NCBI RefSeq assembly: GCF_044324875.1
Contig: NZ_CP172185.1
Length of the DNA: 64,000 nt
Reading direction: 5' to 3' (one strand)
DNA from: Escherichia coli
GTDB lineage: Bacteria; Pseudomonadota; Gammaproteobacteria; Enterobacterales; Enterobacteriaceae
Shown here in pieces: positions 3,822-60,423 of this stretch; the first letter of the stretch is position 1; the number at the start of each line of letters is the position of its first letter. Made by a program: the position numbers and the translations under genes. The notes beneath the pieces are model-generated. The model saw only the letters and a program-made list of their open reading frames with translations, was not told the origin of the DNA and did not search any database.

Positions 3822-3837
3822 ACGCAAACGGTTTCGT
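3822..3837. promoter_or_regulatory. PurR operator (pur box) in the purL leader
   Basis: ACGCAAACGGTTTCGT matches the 16-bp pur box consensus ACGCAAACGTTTTCNT, about 80 bp upstream of the purL start codon. Confidence 0.7.
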
Positions 3838-8115: not shown

Positions 8116-8300
8116 AGTGGCTCATTCACCGACTTATGTCAGCCCCTTCGGGACGTGCTACATAAAATTCGAATGACGCACAACAAGGTGCCTGCCGTCC
8201 AACTTCTGATATCAGCGTAGCTATATCAACCATCGGGCGAAACGTCGAGTTAGGCACCGCCTTATTCCATAACAAAGCCGGGTAATTCCCGGCTTTGTTG
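8116..8300 (+). ncRNA. glmY: GlmY small regulatory RNA
   Basis: About 185 nt from the sigma54 start (AGTGGCTCATTCACCGAC...) to an intrinsic terminator with a perfect 12-bp stem AACAAAGCCGGG/CCCGGCTTTGTT (8271-8299); sits immediately upstream of glrK as expected. Confidence 0.85.
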
Positions 8301-10663: not shown

Positions 10664-11987
10664 ACCTGCGCATTTATTATTGGTCGATGACGATCCGGGA
10701 TTGCTGAAACTGCTTGGCCTGCGCCTGACCAGCGAAGGCTACAGCGTGGTCACGGCGGAAAGTGGTGCTGAAGGATTACGGGTACTGAATCGCGAAAAAG
10801 TAGATTTAGTTATCAGCGACCTGCGGATGGATGAAATGGATGGTATGCAGCTGTTTGCTGAAATCCAGAAAGTGCAGCCGGGAATGCCGGTAATTATTCT
10901 TACCGCACATGGTTCTATTCCCGATGCCGTTGCTGCAACACAGCAGGGCGTGTTCAGTTTCCTCACCAAGCCTGTCGATAAAGACGCGCTATATCAGGCA
11001 ATTGATGATGCGTTGGAACAATCCGCGCCAGCCACCGACGAACGCTGGCGCGAGGCGATTGTCACCCGCAGCCCGCTGATGCTGCGTTTGCTGGAACAGG
11101 CGCGGCTGGTGGCGCAATCAGACGTCAGCGTTTTGATTAATGGCCAGAGCGGCACCGGGAAAGAGATTTTCGCCCAGGCTATCCACAACGCCAGCCCGCG
11201 CAATAGCAAACCATTTATTGCTATTAACTGTGGTGCATTGCCCGAGCAATTGCTGGAGTCGGAGCTGTTTGGTCATGCGCGTGGCGCGTTTACTGGCGCT
11301 GTCAGCAATCGCGAAGGTTTATTCCAGGCGGCGGAAGGCGGTACGCTATTTCTCGATGAGATTGGCGATATGCCCGCACCGTTGCAGGTCAAACTGCTGC
11401 GCGTGTTGCAGGAGCGTAAAGTGCGCCCGCTGGGCAGTAACCGCGATATTGATATCGACGTGCGGATTATTTCCGCCACTCACCGCGACCTGCCAAAAGC
11501 GATGGCGCGCGGGGAATTCCGCGAAGATCTCTATTACCGCCTCAATGTTGTCAGCCTGAAAATTCCGGCTCTGGCAGAGCGCACAGAAGACATTCCGCTA
11601 CTGGCAAATCACCTGTTGCGCCAGGCGGCAGAGCGACATAAACCGTTTGTCCGCGCGTTCTCCACCGATGCAATGAAACGCCTGATGACCGCTAGCTGGC
11701 CGGGTAATGTACGCCAGTTGGTCAACGTGATTGAACAGTGCGTGGCGCTGACCTCATCTCCGGTGATTAGTGATGCATTAGTAGAGCAGGCGCTGGAGGG
11801 TGAAAATACGGCGCTGCCAACCTTTGTTGAGGCACGTAATCAGTTTGAACTCAACTATTTGCGTAAGCTGCTGCAAATTACCAAAGGCAACGTCACCCAC
11901 GCGGCGAGAATGGCGGGGCGCAACCGGACAGAATTTTATAAACTGCTTTCCCGACACGAGCTGGATGCAAACGATTTCAAGGAATGA
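10653..11987 (+). CDS. glrR: sigma54-dependent response regulator GlrR (QseF)
   Basis: Receiver domain (LLVDDD...D), AAA+ sigma54-interaction domain (GESGTGKE-like, GAFTGA motif) and C-terminal HTH; internal ATG at 10653 gives 444 aa. Confidence 0.92.
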
Positions 11988-12430: not shown

Positions 12431-13621
12431 TCACAGCACCTTATGCGGACCAAAGCATTCGTAATGAATGTTTTCCTGCTTCACGCCCAGATCCACTAAC
12501 TGTTTCGCGGCAAACTGCATGAAGCCAACCGGGCCGCAGAGATAGAACTGCATTGTCGGATCGCTGAACGCACCTTCCAGTTTGCTCAAATCCATCAGAC
12601 CTTCGCTATCAAACTGACCTTTAGCGCGATCGGCTTCGCTCGGCTGACGATACCAGGTGTGCGCGGTAAAGCGCGGCAGTGCTTGCCCCAGTTCCTTAAC
12701 TTCATCGGCAAAGGCGTGAACATCGCCATTTTCTGCCGCATGGAACCAGTTCACTTGTGCTGTGTGGCCAGCTTTTGCCAGCGTGTCGAGCATTGCCAGC
12801 ATTGGCGTTTGACCGACACCGGCAGAGATTAACGTCACTGGTGTGTCATCTGCGACAGCCATAAAGAAATCACCTGCTGGAGCGACTAGTTTCACGACAT
12901 CGCCAACATTGGCGTGATTGTGCAGCCAGTTGGATACCTGCCCACCCTCTTCGCGTTTCACCGCAATACGATAGCCTTTGCCATCCGGTTTGCGAGTCAA
13001 AGAGTACTGACGAATTTCCTGATGCGGGAAACCTTCCGGCTTCAGCCAGACGCCGAGATATTGCCCCGGACGGTATTCTGCCACTGCGCCACCGTCGACC
13101 GGCTCCAGTTCGAAGCTGGTGATAAGCGCGCTGCGCGGTGTTTTAGCCACAATGTGGAAATCGCGAGTACCTTCCCAGCCACCGGCTTTGCTGGCGTTTT
13201 CGTTATAGATTTCCGCCTCGCGATTGATAAATACATTAGCCAGTACGCCATAGGCTTTACCCCACGCGTCCAGCACTTCCTGGCCCGGGCTGAACATTTC
13301 GTCCAGCGTCGCCAACAGGTGTTCACCGACAATGTTGTACTGTTCCGGTTTGATCTGGAAGCTGGTGTGCTTCTGCGCGATTTTTTCTACCGCTGGCAGC
13401 AGCGCAGGCAGGTTTTCAATATTACTGGCGTAGGCGGCAATAGCGTTAAACAGGGCTTCACGTTGATCGCCATTACGCTGGTTACTCATGTTAAAAATTT
13501 CTTTGAGTTCTGGGTTATGAGTAAACATACGGTCGTAGAAATGGGCGGTTAACTTTGGCCCCGTTTCCACCAGTAAAGGGATGGTGGCTTTTACTGTAGC
13601 GATGGTTTGAGCGTCAAGCAT
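12431..13621 (-). CDS. hmp: flavohaemoprotein (nitric oxide dioxygenase)
   Basis: Globin N-terminus [20 protein letters not shown] and NAD-binding reductase domains; start taken at the internal Met (396 aa). Confidence 0.95.
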
Positions 13622-13645
13622 ATGGTCTTCCTTTTTTTGCATCTT

Positions 13646-13670
13646 AATTGATGTATCTCAAATGCATCTT
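13646..13670. promoter_or_regulatory. NsrR operator in the hmp promoter
   Basis: Minus-strand reading AAGATGCATTTGAGATACATCAATT matches the NsrR inverted-repeat consensus (AAGATGCATTT...AAATACATCTT), about 25-50 bp upstream of the hmp start. Confidence 0.65.
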
Positions 13671-13815
13671 ATAAAAAATAGCCCTGCAATGTAAATGGTT
13701 CTTTGGTGTTTTTCAGAAAGAATGTGATGAAGTGAAAAATTTGCATCACAAACCTGAAAAGAAATCCGTTTCCGGTTGCAAGCTCTTTATTCTCCAAAGC
13801 CTTGCGCAGCCTGAA

Positions 13816-13831
13816 GGTAATCGTTTGCGTA
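13816..13831. promoter_or_regulatory. candidate PurR half-site in the glyA control region
   Basis: GGTAATCGTTTGCGTA contains CGTTTGCGT, the reverse complement of the pur box half ACGCAAACG; glyA is a known PurR/MetR target. Confidence 0.4.
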
Positions 13832-13948
13832 AATTCCTTTGTCAAGACCTGTTATCGCACAATGATTCGGTTATACTGTTCGCCGTTGTCCAACAGGACC
13901 GCCTATAAAGGCCAAAAATTTTATTGTTAGCTGAGTCAGGAGATGCGG

Positions 13949-15202
13949 ATGTTAAAGCGTGAAATGAACATTGCCGATTATGATGCCGAACTGTGGCAGG
14001 CTATGGAGCAGGAAAAAGTACGTCAGGAAGAGCACATCGAACTGATCGCCTCCGAAAACTACACCAGCCCGCGCGTAATGCAGGCGCAGGGTTCTCAGCT
14101 GACCAACAAATATGCTGAAGGTTATCCGGGCAAACGCTACTACGGCGGTTGCGAGTATGTTGATATCGTTGAACAACTGGCGATCGATCGTGCGAAAGAA
14201 CTGTTCGGTGCTGACTACGCTAACGTCCAGCCGCACTCCGGCTCCCAGGCTAACTTTGCGGTGTACACCGCGCTGCTGGAACCAGGTGATACCGTTCTGG
14301 GTATGAACCTGGCGCATGGCGGTCACCTGACTCACGGTTCTCCGGTTAACTTCTCCGGTAAACTATACAACATCGTTCCTTACGGTATCGATGCTACCGG
14401 TCATATCGACTACGCCGATCTGGAAAAACAAGCCAAAGAACACAAACCGAAAATGATTATCGGTGGCTTCTCTGCATATTCCGGCGTGGTGGACTGGGCG
14501 AAAATGCGTGAAATCGCTGACAGCATCGGTGCTTACCTGTTCGTTGATATGGCGCACGTTGCGGGCCTGGTTGCAGCTGGCGTCTACCCGAACCCGGTTC
14601 CTCATGCTCACGTTGTTACTACCACCACTCACAAAACCCTGGCGGGTCCGCGCGGCGGCCTGATCCTGGCGAAAGGTGGTAGCGAAGAGCTGTACAAAAA
14701 ACTGAACTCTGCGGTTTTCCCTGGTGGTCAGGGTGGTCCGTTGATGCACGTAATCGCCGGTAAAGCGGTTGCTCTGAAAGAAGCGATGGAGCCTGAGTTC
14801 AAAACTTACCAGCAGCAGGTCGCTAAAAACGCTAAAGCGATGGTAGAAGTGTTCCTGGAACGCGGCTACAAAGTGGTTTCCGGCGGCACTGATAACCACC
14901 TGTTCCTGGTTGATCTGGTTGATAAAAACCTGACCGGTAAAGAAGCTGACGCCGCTCTGGGCCGTGCTAACATCACCGTCAACAAAAACAGCGTACCGAA
15001 CGATCCGAAGAGCCCGTTTGTGACCTCCGGTATTCGCGTGGGTACTCCGGCGATTACGCGTCGCGGCTTCAAAGAAGCAGAAGCGAAAGAACTGGCTGGC
15101 TGGATGTGTGACGTGCTGGACAGCATCAATGATGAAGCCGTTATCGAGCGCATCAAAGGTAAAGTTCTCGACATCTGTGCACGTTACCCGGTTTACGCAT
15201 AA
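13949..15202 (+). CDS. glyA: serine hydroxymethyltransferase
   Basis: 417-aa [19 protein letters not shown]...; PLP-lysine motif [14 protein letters not shown]. Confidence 0.97.
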
Positions 15203-25531: not shown

Positions 25532-26433
<902 letters not shown>

Positions 26434-26987
26434 TTTTTTTCCAGGAGATGCTCCTGCATGGCTTTCAGATATGCATTTTCTGCGCGAAGATAACGCAGCT
26501 CATTCTTCATCTCTTCCGGCGTCATGTTTGCCTCGTTTTCATGGGTATCATCAGAACGGGTCATGCTTTTCTCCTTCCAGCGCCTGATAAAGGCCTCATT
26601 ACCAGATTTGCGGTAGCCTTTTATCCAGTTTTTAACCGTGTTGTGGCTGGGAATGTTAAACCGGGCAGCTACCCGGGGTAGAGACTCAGAATGCCCGAGA
26701 GCATAAAGAACCACGCAAAGTTTATCTTCAGGAGAATAGCTACGCTTGTGTCTGCAATCCAGTGCCCGAGGACCGTGAAGAAGAAAAAGATTAATCCAGT
26801 GTGAGAGGCTGGTGTGAGAAAGTTGAAAGAGTTTTGCCGTAGAAATGATGCCTGCATGACCGGCCAGGTAATGATTTACAGCGGCAAGTTTTACTTCAAA
26901 TGAATGTTTCATAAACTGCACCTTCAGATGTCAGATTATGTCCAACATTTGGGGTGCAGTTCATTCACGCCGCATCCGGCATCTTTC

Positions 26988-38931: not shown

Positions 38932-38950
38932 TAAAAAGTATTCAGAATCA

Positions 38951-39027
38951 GGCCGGAGTGTTTAACACTCCGTAAACACGGTCGTACATCCAGCCGGTAG
39001 CCTGGTTCCTTGCATTGAGTGATGTAC
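38951..39027 (+). promoter_or_regulatory. structured iscR-iscS intergenic region (stem-loops preceding the iscS ribosome-binding site)
   Basis: Hairpins CGGAGTG-ttta-ACACTCCG and GTACATC...GATGTAC; established site of RyhB-dependent differential stability of the isc mRNA (coordinates approximate). Confidence 0.45.
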
Positions 39028-39042
39028 GGAGTTTATAGAGCA

Positions 39043-45708: not shown

Positions 45709-46485
45709 ATGTCCGAAACAAAAAATGAACTTGAAGACCTGCTGGAAAAAGCAGCAACCGAACCGGCGCACCGCCCGGCCTTTTTCCGTACTCTACTGGA
45801 ATCCACCGTCTGGGTGCCGGGTACGGCGGCGCAGGGCGAGGCTGTGGTTGAAGATAGCGCGCTTGATTTACAGCACTGGGAAAAAGAAGACGGCACCAGC
45901 GTCATTCCTTTTTTTACCTCGTTAGAAGCACTTCAACAGGCGGTTGAAGACGAACAGGCATTTGTCGTAATGCCCGTTCGCACATTGTTTGAGATGACCC
46001 TTGGCGAAACGCTCTTCCTTAATGCCAAACTGCCAACCGGTAAAGAATTTATGCCGCGTGAAATCAGTTTGTTGATTGGTGAAGAAGGAAATCCGCTGAG
46101 CAGCCAGGAAGTACTGGAGGGCGGTGAATCGCTGATATTATCGGAAGTCGCAGAGCCACCAGCACAAATGATTGATTCTCTCACCACCTTATTTAAAACT
46201 ATTAAGCCGGTGAAGCGTGCTTTTATTTGTTCAATTAAAGAGAACGAAGAGTCACAGCCTAATTTACTTATTGGCATTGAAGCCGATGGTGATATCGAAG
46301 AAATTATTCAGGCGGCGGGAAGTGTAGCGACCGATACATTACCTGGCGATGAACCCATCGATATTTGTCAGGTGAAAAAAGGGGAAAAAGGAATTAGCCA
46401 CTTTATTACCGAACATATTGCGCCATTCTATGAACGTCGCTGGGGTGGTTTTTTGCGTGACTTTAAACAGCATCGGATAATCTAA
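45709..46485 (+). CDS. sseB: enhanced serine sensitivity protein SseB
   Basis: 258-aa ORF MSETKNELEDLLEKAATEPAHRPAFF...; synteny between pepB and sseA. Confidence 0.85.
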   Translation: MSETKNELEDLLEKAATEPAHRPAFFRTLLESTVWVPGTAAQGEAVVEDSALDLQHWEKEDGTSVIPFFTSLEALQQAVEDEQAFVVMPVRTLFEMTLGETLFLNAKLPTGKEFMPREISLLIGEEGNPLSSQEVLEGGESLILSEVAEPPAQMIDSLTTLFKTIKPVKRAFICSIKENEESQPNLLIGIEADGDIEEIIQAAGSVATDTLPGDEPIDICQVKKGEKGISHFITEHIAPFYERRWGGFLRDFKQHRII

Positions 46486-46802
46486 AATATGCCGCCCCAA
46501 AGGGCGGCATTCGGGCTTACTTGCTGCTCTGAAGTTTGTTAACCACCAGTAAATTGTTGCCGGAGAGACTCCGGTTATTATTTACCTCGGTTAACAGCGC
46601 ACCAGAAACAATAAGTACGATACAAAAGCACCGTATCTTCATTGTGCGGTCCATGCGAAGACCGCATCACGACAGCACCACTGGCGATATTGCCGCGATA
46701 GCAAGCGCTGAGACGCGCTTGCTCTAACGGTCGCGGAACATCCTTTCCTTAAGCCAGCGCCCGCTTGCGAGACGGCGGAAAGGGCCGCAGTGGATAATAC
46801 AC
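46486..46802 (-). ncRNA. ryfA: RyfA-like RNA copy 1 (putative small-protein toxin mRNA, TimP/RyfA type); 5' end approximate
   Basis: Minus-strand unit between a promoter-like TTGTCA-16-TATTGT (about 46837-46810) and terminator hairpin ATGCCGCCCTTTGGGGCGGCAT plus U-tract (46510-46486); about 310 nt; leader has SD-sequestering CCTTTCC/GGAAAGG stem. Confidence 0.6.
46517..46654 (-). CDS. hypothetical 45-aa small protein with hydrophobic N-terminal segment (candidate type I toxin)
   Basis: ORF MDRTMKIRCFCIVLIVSGALLTEVNNNRSLSGNNLLVVNKLQSSK verified codon by codon; identical in copy 2 except the last residues; no strong Shine-Dalgarno, so start codon uncertain. Confidence 0.35.
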   Translation of the reverse strand: MDRTMKIRCFCIVLIVSGALLTEVNNNRSLSGNNLLVVNKLQSSK

Positions 46803-46865: not shown

Positions 46866-46962
46866 CGCTGAGACGCGCTTGCATTACTACGGTAATACAA
46901 CCTGCTGGAAAGGCCGCGAACCGGACCAGCAACAAAAAACCGCCTGATTTTGGCGGTTTTTT
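46866..46962 (+). ncRNA. putative sRNA 1, divergent from RyfA-like copy 1 (candidate antitoxin RNA, TimR-like)
   Basis: TTGACA (46831-46836) -17 bp- GAGTAT promoter; about 97 nt to intrinsic terminator AAAAAACCGCC-tgatttt-GGCGGTTTTTT (46935-46962); 5' 17 nt identical to the plus strand at 46706-46722. Confidence 0.5.
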
Positions 46963-47079
46963 GTTGTTTAAAGAAAGTGAATTTACATGTTCAAGTAATA
47001 TCTTTTATTGGTTAGTATTTTTAATATTAAGCGAAAATTGTTTATATTTGTCTGAATTCGGACTAATAAGCTAGGTTAT

Positions 47080-47163
47080 TTTATTACCGAACATATTGCG
47101 CCATTCTATGAACGTCGCTGGGGTGGTTTTTTGCGTGACTTTAAACAGAATGGGATAATTTAA
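47080..47163 (+). pseudogene. duplicated 3' fragment of sseB (about 27 C-terminal codons plus stop), non-functional remnant at the repeat junction
   Basis: TTTATTACCGAACATATTGCGCCATTCTATGAACGTCGCTGGGGTGGTTTTTTGCGTGACTTTAAACAG repeated from 46402-46470, followed by a diverged tail and TAA at 47161-47163. Confidence 0.8.
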
Positions 47164-47480
47164 AACATGCCGCCCCAAAGGGCGGCATTCGGGCTTACCT
47201 GCTGTTCTGAAGGTTGTTAACCACCAGTAAATTGTTGCCGGAGAGACTCCGGTTATTATTTACCTCGGTTAACAGCGCACCAGAAACAATAAGTACGATA
47301 CAAAAGCACCGTATCTTCATTGTGCGGTCCATGCGAAGACCGCATCACGACAGCACCACTGGCGATATTGCCGCGATAGCAAGCGCTGTGAAACACCTGC
47401 ATTTACGGCCATGGAACATCCTTTCCTTAAGCCAGCGCCCGTTTGCGAGACGGCGGAAAGGGCCGGTGTCGATAATACGC
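47164..47480 (-). ncRNA. ryfA: RyfA-like RNA copy 2; 5' end approximate
   Basis: Same architecture as copy 1, shifted by 678 bp; terminator hairpin at 47167-47188; leader diverged from copy 1. Confidence 0.6.
47195..47332 (-). CDS. hypothetical 45-aa small protein, paralogue of the 46517-46654 ORF
   Basis: Same ORF as copy 1 with three C-terminal substitutions (K to N, S to N, K to R); frame and length preserved. Confidence 0.35.
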   Translation of the reverse strand: MDRTMKIRCFCIVLIVSGALLTEVNNNRSLSGNNLLVVNNLQNSR

Positions 47481-55986: not shown

Positions 55987-56134
55987 TCTGTTTTGTCCCT
56001 GATTGTTGCTTAAACTAGGTTTATTTTAAAAAAATGTTACCTTCATCAATAGTCAACGGCCCTGTTGCTCATTATAATCCGCGCCATCTCGTACGCTGGT
56101 ACAGACAACAACAGAACAATTTACAGAGGTAAAA

Positions 56135-59194: not shown

Positions 59195-60313
59195 ATGCAT
59201 AACCAGGCTCCAATTCAACGTAGAAAATCAACACGTATTTACGTTGGGAATGTGCCGATTGGCGATGGTGCTCCCATCGCCGTACAGTCCATGACCAATA
59301 CGCGTACGACAGACGTCGAAGCAACGGTCAATCAAATCAAGGCGTTGGAACGTGTTGGCGCTGATATCGTCCGTGTCTCAGTACCGACGATGGACGCGGC
59401 AGAAGCGTTCAAACTCATCAAACAGCAGGTTAACGTGCCGCTGGTGGCTGACATCCACTTCGACTATCGCATTGCGCTGAAAGTAGCGGAATACGGCGTC
59501 GATTGTCTGCGTATTAACCCTGGCAATATCGGTAATGAAGAGCGTATTCGCATGGTGGTTGACTGTGCGCGCGATAAAAACATTCCGATCCGTATTGGCG
59601 TTAACGCCGGATCGCTGGAAAAAGATCTGCAAGAAAAGTATGGCGAACCGACGCCGCAGGCGTTGCTGGAATCCGCCATGCGTCATGTTGATCATCTCGA
59701 TCGCTTGAACTTCGAACAGTTCAAAGTCAGCGTGAAAGCGTCAGACGTCTTCCTCGCTGTTGAGTCTTATCGTTTGCTGGCAAAACAGATCGATCAGCCG
59801 CTGCATCTGGGGATCACCGAAGCGGGTGGTGCGCGCAGCGGGGCGGTTAAATCCGCCATTGGTTTAGGTCTGCTGCTGTCTGAAGGCATTGGCGACACGC
59901 TGCGCGTATCGCTGGCGGCCGATCCGGTTGAAGAGATCAAAGTCGGTTTCGATATTTTGAAATCGCTGCGTATCCGTTCGCGCGGGATCAACTTCATCGC
60001 CTGTCCAACCTGTTCGCGTCAGGAGTTTGATGTTATCGGTACGGTTAACGCGCTGGAGCAACGCCTGGAAGATATCATCACTCCGATGGACGTTTCGATT
60101 ATCGGCTGTGTGGTGAATGGCCCAGGTGAGGCGCTGGTTTCTACACTCGGCGTCACCGGCGGTAACAAGAAAAGCGGCCTCTATGAAGATGGCGTGCGCA
60201 AAGACCGTCTGGACAACAACGATATGATCGACCAGCTGGAAGCGCGCATTCGTGCGAAAGCCAGTCAGCTGGACGAAGCGCGTCGAATTGACGTTCAGCA
60301 GGTTGAAAAATAA
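59195..60313 (+). CDS. ispG: 4-hydroxy-3-methylbut-2-enyl diphosphate synthase
   Basis: 372-aa [31 protein letters not shown]...; [4Fe-4S] cysteines CPTCSR...C. Confidence 0.95.
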
Positions 60314-60423
60314 TAACGTGATGGGAAGCGCCTCGCTTCCCGTGTATGATTGAACCCGCATGGCTCCCGAAACATTGAGGGAAGCGTTGAGGGTTCATTT
60401 TTATATTCAGAAAGAGAATAAAC

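Follow-up and report, generated by a model that had tools for sequence, protein, structure and literature searches.

The divergent intergenic region of 327 bp that separates hmp from glyA is very probably a shared control region that carries separate operators for four known regulators, NsrR, FNR, MetR, and PurR. It occupies positions 13622–13948 of the window, the whole 64,000-nucleotide stretch of Escherichia coli DNA analysed here. The region and its sites for the four regulators are already known; they have been studied since the 1990s, are recorded in RegulonDB and in genome-wide ChIP studies, and their regulatory roles have been described (PMC2884951, PMC6950321, PMC1274295, PMC5002191, PMC4239095). 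The discovery value is small, and the region serves as a positive control: two of the operators, those of NsrR and PurR, had been placed within 1–2 bp in the initial annotation, which was a tool-free reading of the raw sequence.

Architecture of the hmp-glyA intergenic region

The region extends exactly from the base next to the hmp start codon (ATG at 13621, minus strand) to the base before that of glyA (ATG at 13949, plus strand). An upstream in-frame ATG at 13642, given as the hmp start in the list of open reading frames, was rejected in favour of 13621. The compact divergent layout proposed in the initial annotation is borne out by the open reading frames, by the NCBIfam matches of both genes (Table 1), and by the same length of the region in MG1655, to which 326 of the 327 bases are identical; the window is reversed relative to the MG1655 record. 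When a 601-bp query spanning the region was compared with 5426 complete E. coli genomes, 5425 had a match of at least 95% identity, and hmpA and glyA were annotated beneath it. The sole difference from MG1655, C instead of T at 13807, affects a position of low conservation outside all assigned motifs, with the MetR sites on one side and the PurR site on the other.

Table 1. Genes, promoters, and regulator sites at the hmp-glyA locus, in window coordinates.
Feature	Position	Strand	Evidence and remarks
hmp coding sequence	12431–13621	-	NO-inducible flavohaemoprotein / NO dioxygenase, 396 aa; NCBIfam NF009805, E = 6.9e-189, full length
hmp Shine-Dalgarno AAGGA	13629–13633	-	7 nt before ATG; read from sequence
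Single NsrR-type 11-mer AAGATGCAAAA in hmp 5' UTR	13635–13645	-	weak; PMC5320621 Table 2, 'hmp (19)'
NsrR operator TTGATGTATCTCAAATGCATCTT (hmp strand AAGATGCATTTGAGATACATCAA)	13648–13670	.	11-1-11 imperfect inverted repeat; published ChIP-seq-positive site, weight matrix, conservation
FNR-type box TTGATgtatCTCAA	13648–13661	.	1 mismatch to TTGAT-N4-ATCAA; superimposed on left half of NsrR operator
hmp sigma-70 promoter	13666–13695	-	promoter scan; -35 TTTACA (13695–13690); -10 TAAGAT (13671–13666, spacer 18) or TATAAG (13673–13668, spacer 16)
MetR-type site A TGAAAAATTTGCA, hmp-proximal	13733–13745	.	putative; 1 mismatch to TGAA-N5-TTCA
MetR-type site B TGAAAAGAAATCC, glyA-proximal	13755–13767	.	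putative; 2 mismatches; 22 bp from site A
PurR operator AGGTAATCGTTTGCGT	13815–13830	+	16 bp; identical to Cho 2011 Table 1 in sequence and coordinate; weight matrix
glyA promoter region	13839–13877	+	TTGTCA 13839–13844; candidate -10 hexamers AATGAT 13861–13866 and TATACT 13872–13877
End of glyA 5' UTR with Shine-Dalgarno AGGAG	13926–13948	+	near-invariant; sub-block 13935–13948 conserved 0.99
glyA coding sequence	13949–15202	+	serine hydroxymethyltransferase, 417 aa; NCBIfam NF000586, E = 2.6e-204

The NsrR operator and the hmp promoter

The 23 bases at 13648–13670 are letter-for-letter identical to the NsrR site listed for hmp by Mehta et al. 2015 (PMC5320621, Table 4), where it is associated with a ChIP-seq peak and with a PatSer ln(P) of -18.22, beyond the threshold of -14.28. 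Occupancy at hmp was recorded as a ChIP-seq peak in CFT073, with the summit 34 bp upstream of the hmp ATG, and by ChIP-chip in K-12 (PMC5320621). An NsrR-type inverted repeat had been proposed at 13646–13670; the repeat is real and corresponds to this canonical operator, the proposed interval being 2 nt too long at the left. In Table 2 of the same study, two single 11-mers have their centres 44 and 19 bp away from the start codon of hmp; both distances were reproduced exactly in the window, by AAGATGCATTT (13670–13660) and AAGATGCAAAA (13645–13635).

The operator was scored with a symmetrised matrix built from 25 other distinct published sites, the hmp site being left out. It reached 18.1 bits, inside the 12.1–32.3 bits spanned by the training sites, and ranked third among the ~128,000 strand-positions of the window. 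This rank, together with the published score past its cut-off, upholds the NsrR assignment. Considered as a bare inverted repeat, 13648–13670 is weak, with 7 of 11 arm positions complementary, and ~2.5 repeats of that quality were calculated to occur by chance in 327 bp. Because its arms are complementary at only 7 of 11 positions, the repeat was not reported by a repeat search that used a 6-nt seed. The repeat per se is statistically unremarkable; only the matrix match is notable.

The top matrix match in the window, the 23-bp NsrR-type palindrome AAGTTTTACTTCAAATGAATGTT at 26886–26908, agrees with a training site in every base and is located in the 5' end of the transposase gene of an IS1397 copy. 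This IS3-like element (25564–26912) sits between yphB and yphA, and the junction is present in just 58 of 5426 complete E. coli genomes. The c0118/c0233 sites of CFT073, at which NsrR ChIP-seq peaks are recorded, have the same sequence as the palindrome, and the mobile element therefore carries an NsrR-bound site along. Another match, TAGGTTTATTTTAAAAAAATGTT at 56016–56038 in a 1.2-kb stretch annotated pbpC and ndk, also scored above the hmp site (19.8 bits); the published lists of NsrR sites do not include it, its A/T content is very high, and the match may be due to chance.

The promoter scan found a single hmp-facing sigma-70-like promoter, at TTTACA/TAAGAT. The NsrR operator therefore overlaps both -10 candidates, TAAGAT and TATAAG, as well as the predicted start site, in agreement with the overlap between repeat and promoter described in the initial annotation. 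The -35 hexamer is conserved at 0.98 and positions 13666–13672 are invariant across 77 Enterobacteriaceae (see below), and the block around the hmp Shine-Dalgarno sequence (13627–13633) is conserved at 0.91. From this placement, bound NsrR would block RNA polymerase. The additional 11-mer at 13635–13645, also picked up as the direct repeat TGCATCTTA, scored 7.8 bits (rank 95 in the window) and is conserved at 0.47, making a second functional NsrR half-site doubtful.

An FNR box overlapping the NsrR operator

The left half of the NsrR operator doubles as an FNR-type box that lies over the predicted hmp start site and was overlooked in the initial annotation. FNR matches of this quality (at most one mismatch) gave eight strand-hits in the whole window, which amount to four distinct sites because the FNR consensus is palindromic. 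Repression of hmp by FNR has been described (PMC2884951, PMC1274295). Across the orthologous hmp-glyA regions the box is not conserved: it is present with at most one mismatch in only 12 of 77 species, comprising Escherichia, Salmonella diarizonae, and some Citrobacter. This distribution argues for a lineage-specific site and not against function in E. coli, and Rodionov 2005 (PMC1274295) described the FNR site as confined to E. coli and Salmonella.

Among the 77 Enterobacteriaceae (median 27.2 bits), the E. coli hmp operator has the lowest NsrR matrix score, 18.1 bits, since its left half also serves as the FNR box. In Escherichia this half reads TTGATGTATCT, which creates the FNR box, whereas most genera have ATGATGTATTT or ATGATGTATGT. 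This exchange in Escherichia, a weaker NsrR operator for an FNR box, slightly refines the picture given by Rodionov et al. 2005 (PMC1274295).

The PurR operator and the glyA promoter

The 16-mer AGGTAATCGTTTGCGT is the glyA PurR site of Cho et al. 2011 (PMC3159470, Table 1), where it is placed at 2,683,648–2,683,663 and was bound in ChIP-chip with and without adenine. Those coordinates, converted via the glyA start codon, fall exactly on window positions 13830–13815. The ChIP-chip log ratio at glyA with adenine is 2.08, at the top of the scale (PMC3159470), and in RegulonDB the site has the status 'confirmed', based on cross-validation between independent types of strong evidence (PMC3548332). 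As with NsrR, the site coincides with the mapped coordinates, so that the comparison with published maps supports both.

For PurR, the matrix was derived from the published sites other than those of glyA and purL. The glyA site scored 21.5 bits, second in the 64-kb window after the purL operator and in the middle of the 12.3–25.3 bits of ChIP-bound PurR sites, so the weight-matrix scan bears out the annotated PurR site. The half CGTTTGCGT is found at 13822–13830, and the full 16-mer matches ACGCAAACGTTTGCGT at 13 of 16 positions. The score and the consensus match therefore indicate that the operator is complete, one of its halves being perfect and the other degenerate, and is more than a half-site. 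The initial annotation, which had marked a pur-box half-site at 13816–13831, was right about the presence of a PurR site, which is real and mapped, but was shifted by 1 nt and took a full operator for a half.

Two other PurR boxes in the window served as internal positive controls. The purL operator ACGAAACCGTTTGCGT (3822–3837) is the best PurR matrix match in the window, at 22.2 bits. The next-best match after glyA, the weaker box TTGAAATCGTTTGCAT (11965–11980; 12.3 bits), lies 68–83 bp upstream of glnB, within the end of the preceding gene, and fits the reported PurR control of glnB, which was missed by ChIP-chip.

The PurR operator is separated by 8 bp from the TTGTCA hexamer downstream of it, which belongs to the glyA promoter. 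For the glyA -10 there are two candidates: AATGAT has a proper 16-bp spacing from TTGTCA and a conservation of 0.71, and TATACT is invariant, yet 27 bp from TTGTCA. A leader or riboswitch behind the conserved glyA 5' UTR was considered and dropped, as no Rfam family was found in 13000–14500 and the folding of the UTR was not unusual against shuffles (z = 0.57). Rfam families matched elsewhere in the window are GlmY (8116–8263), the iscRS stability element (38932–39041), and sroE (60313–60404). In addition, two full-length copies of the ryfA sRNA (46484–46788 and 47162–47466, minus strand) flank an IS128 RNA (46920–47130).

Putative MetR sites

Two MetR sites with the consensus TGAAnnTnnTTCA are described in the divergent hmp-glyA region by PMC5002191, which cites the footprints of Lorenz & Stauffer 1995/1996 for them. 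Membrillo-Hernandez et al. 1998, a paper cited in PMC2884951 and PMC6950321, concerns by its title the control of hmp by MetR through the hmp-glyA region. The positions 13733–13745 (site A) and 13755–13767 (site B) are assigned here as the probable MetR sites from the consensus, conservation, and these secondary citations. The MetR-like repeats upstream of glyA, noted without coordinates in the initial annotation, fit this assignment, in that sites A and B resemble the consensus and two sites have been reported there (PMC5002191).

Site B is a poor fit to the consensus, with mismatches at two of eight core positions and at four of ten positions of the 15-mer consensus, and single 13-mers with two mismatches are common by chance (~300 per 64 kb). 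The tandem arrangement is rarer: two pairs with at most three mismatches in total and 20–23 bp spacing occur in 64 kb, where block shuffles gave an expectation of 0.5.

Conservation across Enterobacteriaceae

Orthologous regions were collected by means of a degenerate nucleotide pattern that represents the N-terminus of Hmp and located 87 genome loci; 77 distinct sequences, the window included, had a complete hmp-glyA intergenic region. The divergent layout is kept in all 77, with spacers of 272–331 bp that are 61–96% identical to E. coli. Measured as mean identity to the E. coli base in the 77 regions, motif blocks are conserved at 0.84–1.00, compared with 0.68 for positions without an assigned motif. 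The right half of the PurR operator is invariant (1.00, 77 of 77), and its left half has 0.87. The corresponding halves of the NsrR operator have 0.96 (right) and 0.77 (left). MetR site B reaches 0.97, with a near-invariant spacer (13746–13754) beside it, and site A 0.88; the TTGTCA and TATACT hexamers of the glyA promoter have 1.00.

The matrix matches are equally persistent. The best NsrR match is at the equivalent place in all 77 regions (18.1–31.6 bits, median 27.2). In 70 regions it starts 24–29 nt from the hmp ATG, and in the other seven the distance is 18–39 nt. The best PurR match, likewise present in 77 of 77 (14.8–25.3 bits, median 21.5), is always on the same strand and 94–120 bp before the glyA ATG. 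Shuffled controls peaked at 13.0 bits for NsrR and 11.6 bits for PurR, values exceeded in all 77 regions. The mean conservation of the full NsrR 23-mer, 0.84, is unexceptional because the left half varies; 37% of windows of the same length equal it. The informative conservation test for NsrR is the site-level matrix score across species and not the mean conservation of windows.

Alternative explanations

We consider it very improbable that the palindrome at 13648–13670 is only an FNR site and its resemblance to an NsrR operator incidental. Such a reading would account for the single mismatch of TTGATgtatCTCAA to the FNR consensus, and repression of hmp by FNR was described before NsrR was known (PMC2884951, PMC1274295). 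Against it, the box is found in only 12 of 77 species, whereas an NsrR match of at least 18.1 bits occupies the same position in all 77, and the invariant operator half AAATGCATCTT lies outside the FNR box. The position of the NsrR ChIP-seq summit, 34 bp upstream of the hmp ATG (PMC5320621), also speaks for an NsrR operator with an FNR box laid over it, and Rodionov 2005 concluded likewise (PMC1274295).

Two further readings can hardly be credited. One holds that the pur box is no more than a relic half-site, unable to bind a PurR dimer, with the purine control of glyA being indirect; its left half AGGTAATC agrees with the consensus at 5 of 8 positions, and the repression of glyA by PurR is reportedly modest (Steiert 1990). 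Yet the full 16-mer scores in the middle of the ChIP-bound range, positions A19 and A20 of the left half are invariant across species, and both the ChIP-chip log ratio of 2.08 with adenine (PMC3159470) and the 'confirmed' status in RegulonDB (PMC3548332) favour a complete, occupied operator. The other takes all the motif matches for chance resemblances without regulatory function in an A/T-rich intergenic region. Taken singly, the bare 7/11 inverted repeat, which the repeat search left unflagged, and the 2-mismatch MetR-like 13-mers are indeed common by chance; against this stand the matrix scores that put both the NsrR and the PurR site within the top three of 64 kb, the shuffles that reach at most 13.0 and 11.6 bits, the conservation across 77 species, and published in vivo binding at exactly these coordinates (PMC3159470, PMC5320621). 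The reading of the region as a shared control region with separate operators is thus retained.

Conserved blocks beyond the known sites

Five blocks conserved at 0.8–1.0 in the 77 species, 13696–13704, 13746–13754, 13785–13804, 13845–13856, and 13926–13948, fall outside the NsrR, FNR, MetR, and PurR sites and the promoter hexamers. The first of them abuts the hmp -35. Weaker MetR-like 13-mers, with two mismatches, were found at 13690–13702 and 13777–13789, so that MetR-like matches start at 13690, 13733, 13755, and 13777, with spacings of 43, 22, and 22 bp; ~1.5 such matches are expected per 327 bp, and the 43/22-bp register is only a lead. It is conceivable, if unlikely, that the constraint beyond the four regulators reflects a larger nucleoprotein array of MetR or other factors that couples both promoters and includes an activation-type site over the hmp -35, and that, separately, the weakening of the Escherichia NsrR operator by the FNR overlay (18 versus a median of 27 bits) might make NsrR repression of hmp leakier.

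Proposed regulation of the two genes

In the proposed scheme, [4Fe-4S]-NsrR bound at 13648–13670 would keep RNA polymerase from the hmp promoter by occlusion. According to the literature, NO would damage the NsrR cluster and lower its affinity for DNA, so that NsrR would leave and hmp would be derepressed; repression of hmp by NsrR and its relief by NO have been described (PMC2884951, PMC6950321). Under anaerobic conditions FNR would bind the overlapping box and repress hmp, and NO is reported to inactivate FNR as well. At the middle of the region, MetR with homocysteine would activate glyA and repress hmp (PMC5002191). Once nitrosation has depleted homocysteine, MetR bound at the site nearer hmp would raise hmp expression, as outlined in PMC5002191 and in a figure legend of PMC2884951. 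At the other end, PurR with its purine corepressor would bind 13815–13830 just upstream of the glyA -35 and modestly repress glyA, an outcome taken from the literature.

The idea that nitrosative-stress and one-carbon regulation share a short divergent region, put forward in the initial annotation, agrees with the literature. MetR acts on both genes via homocysteine, and the link is thus real and mediated by the shared MetR sites. The region shows nitrosative-stress control and one-carbon/purine control sharing 327 bp via MetR and homocysteine.

Comparison with known systems

The closest counterpart is the hmp-glyA region of E. coli K-12 (b2552-b2551; RegulonDB/EcoCyc), which is the same locus with the same NsrR, PurR, MetR, and FNR sites; the region analysed here differs from it by the single C at 13807 (T in MG1655). 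The NsrR operator of hmp has the 23-bp, 11-1-11 architecture of the ytfE and hcp operators, which are bound by the same Rrf2-family [4Fe-4S] repressor, and its half-site AAGATGCATTT is identical to the ytfE half-site. Different from ytfE, the second half at hmp is degenerate, with 7 of 11 positions symmetric and 18 bits versus 32, and doubles as an FNR box in Escherichia.

The glyA PurR site resembles the operators of the pur regulon, such as that of purL, in that it is a LacI-family palindrome of 16 bp, has CG at its centre, and contains a perfect CGTTTGCGT half. It differs from them in that its left half is degenerate, in its location, which is upstream of the -35 and neither over the promoter nor within transcribed sequence, and in its target, a one-carbon gene and not a purine gene. 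The putative MetR-type sites are reminiscent of the metE-metR divergent region, the LysR-type system in which two TGAA-N5-TTCA-type sites also lie about two helical turns apart. The hmp-glyA region has its own distinctions: neither flanking gene encodes the regulator, the MetR-type sites are far from the glyA promoter hexamers (~80–140 bp upstream), and hmp and glyA respond oppositely to homocysteine (PMC5002191).
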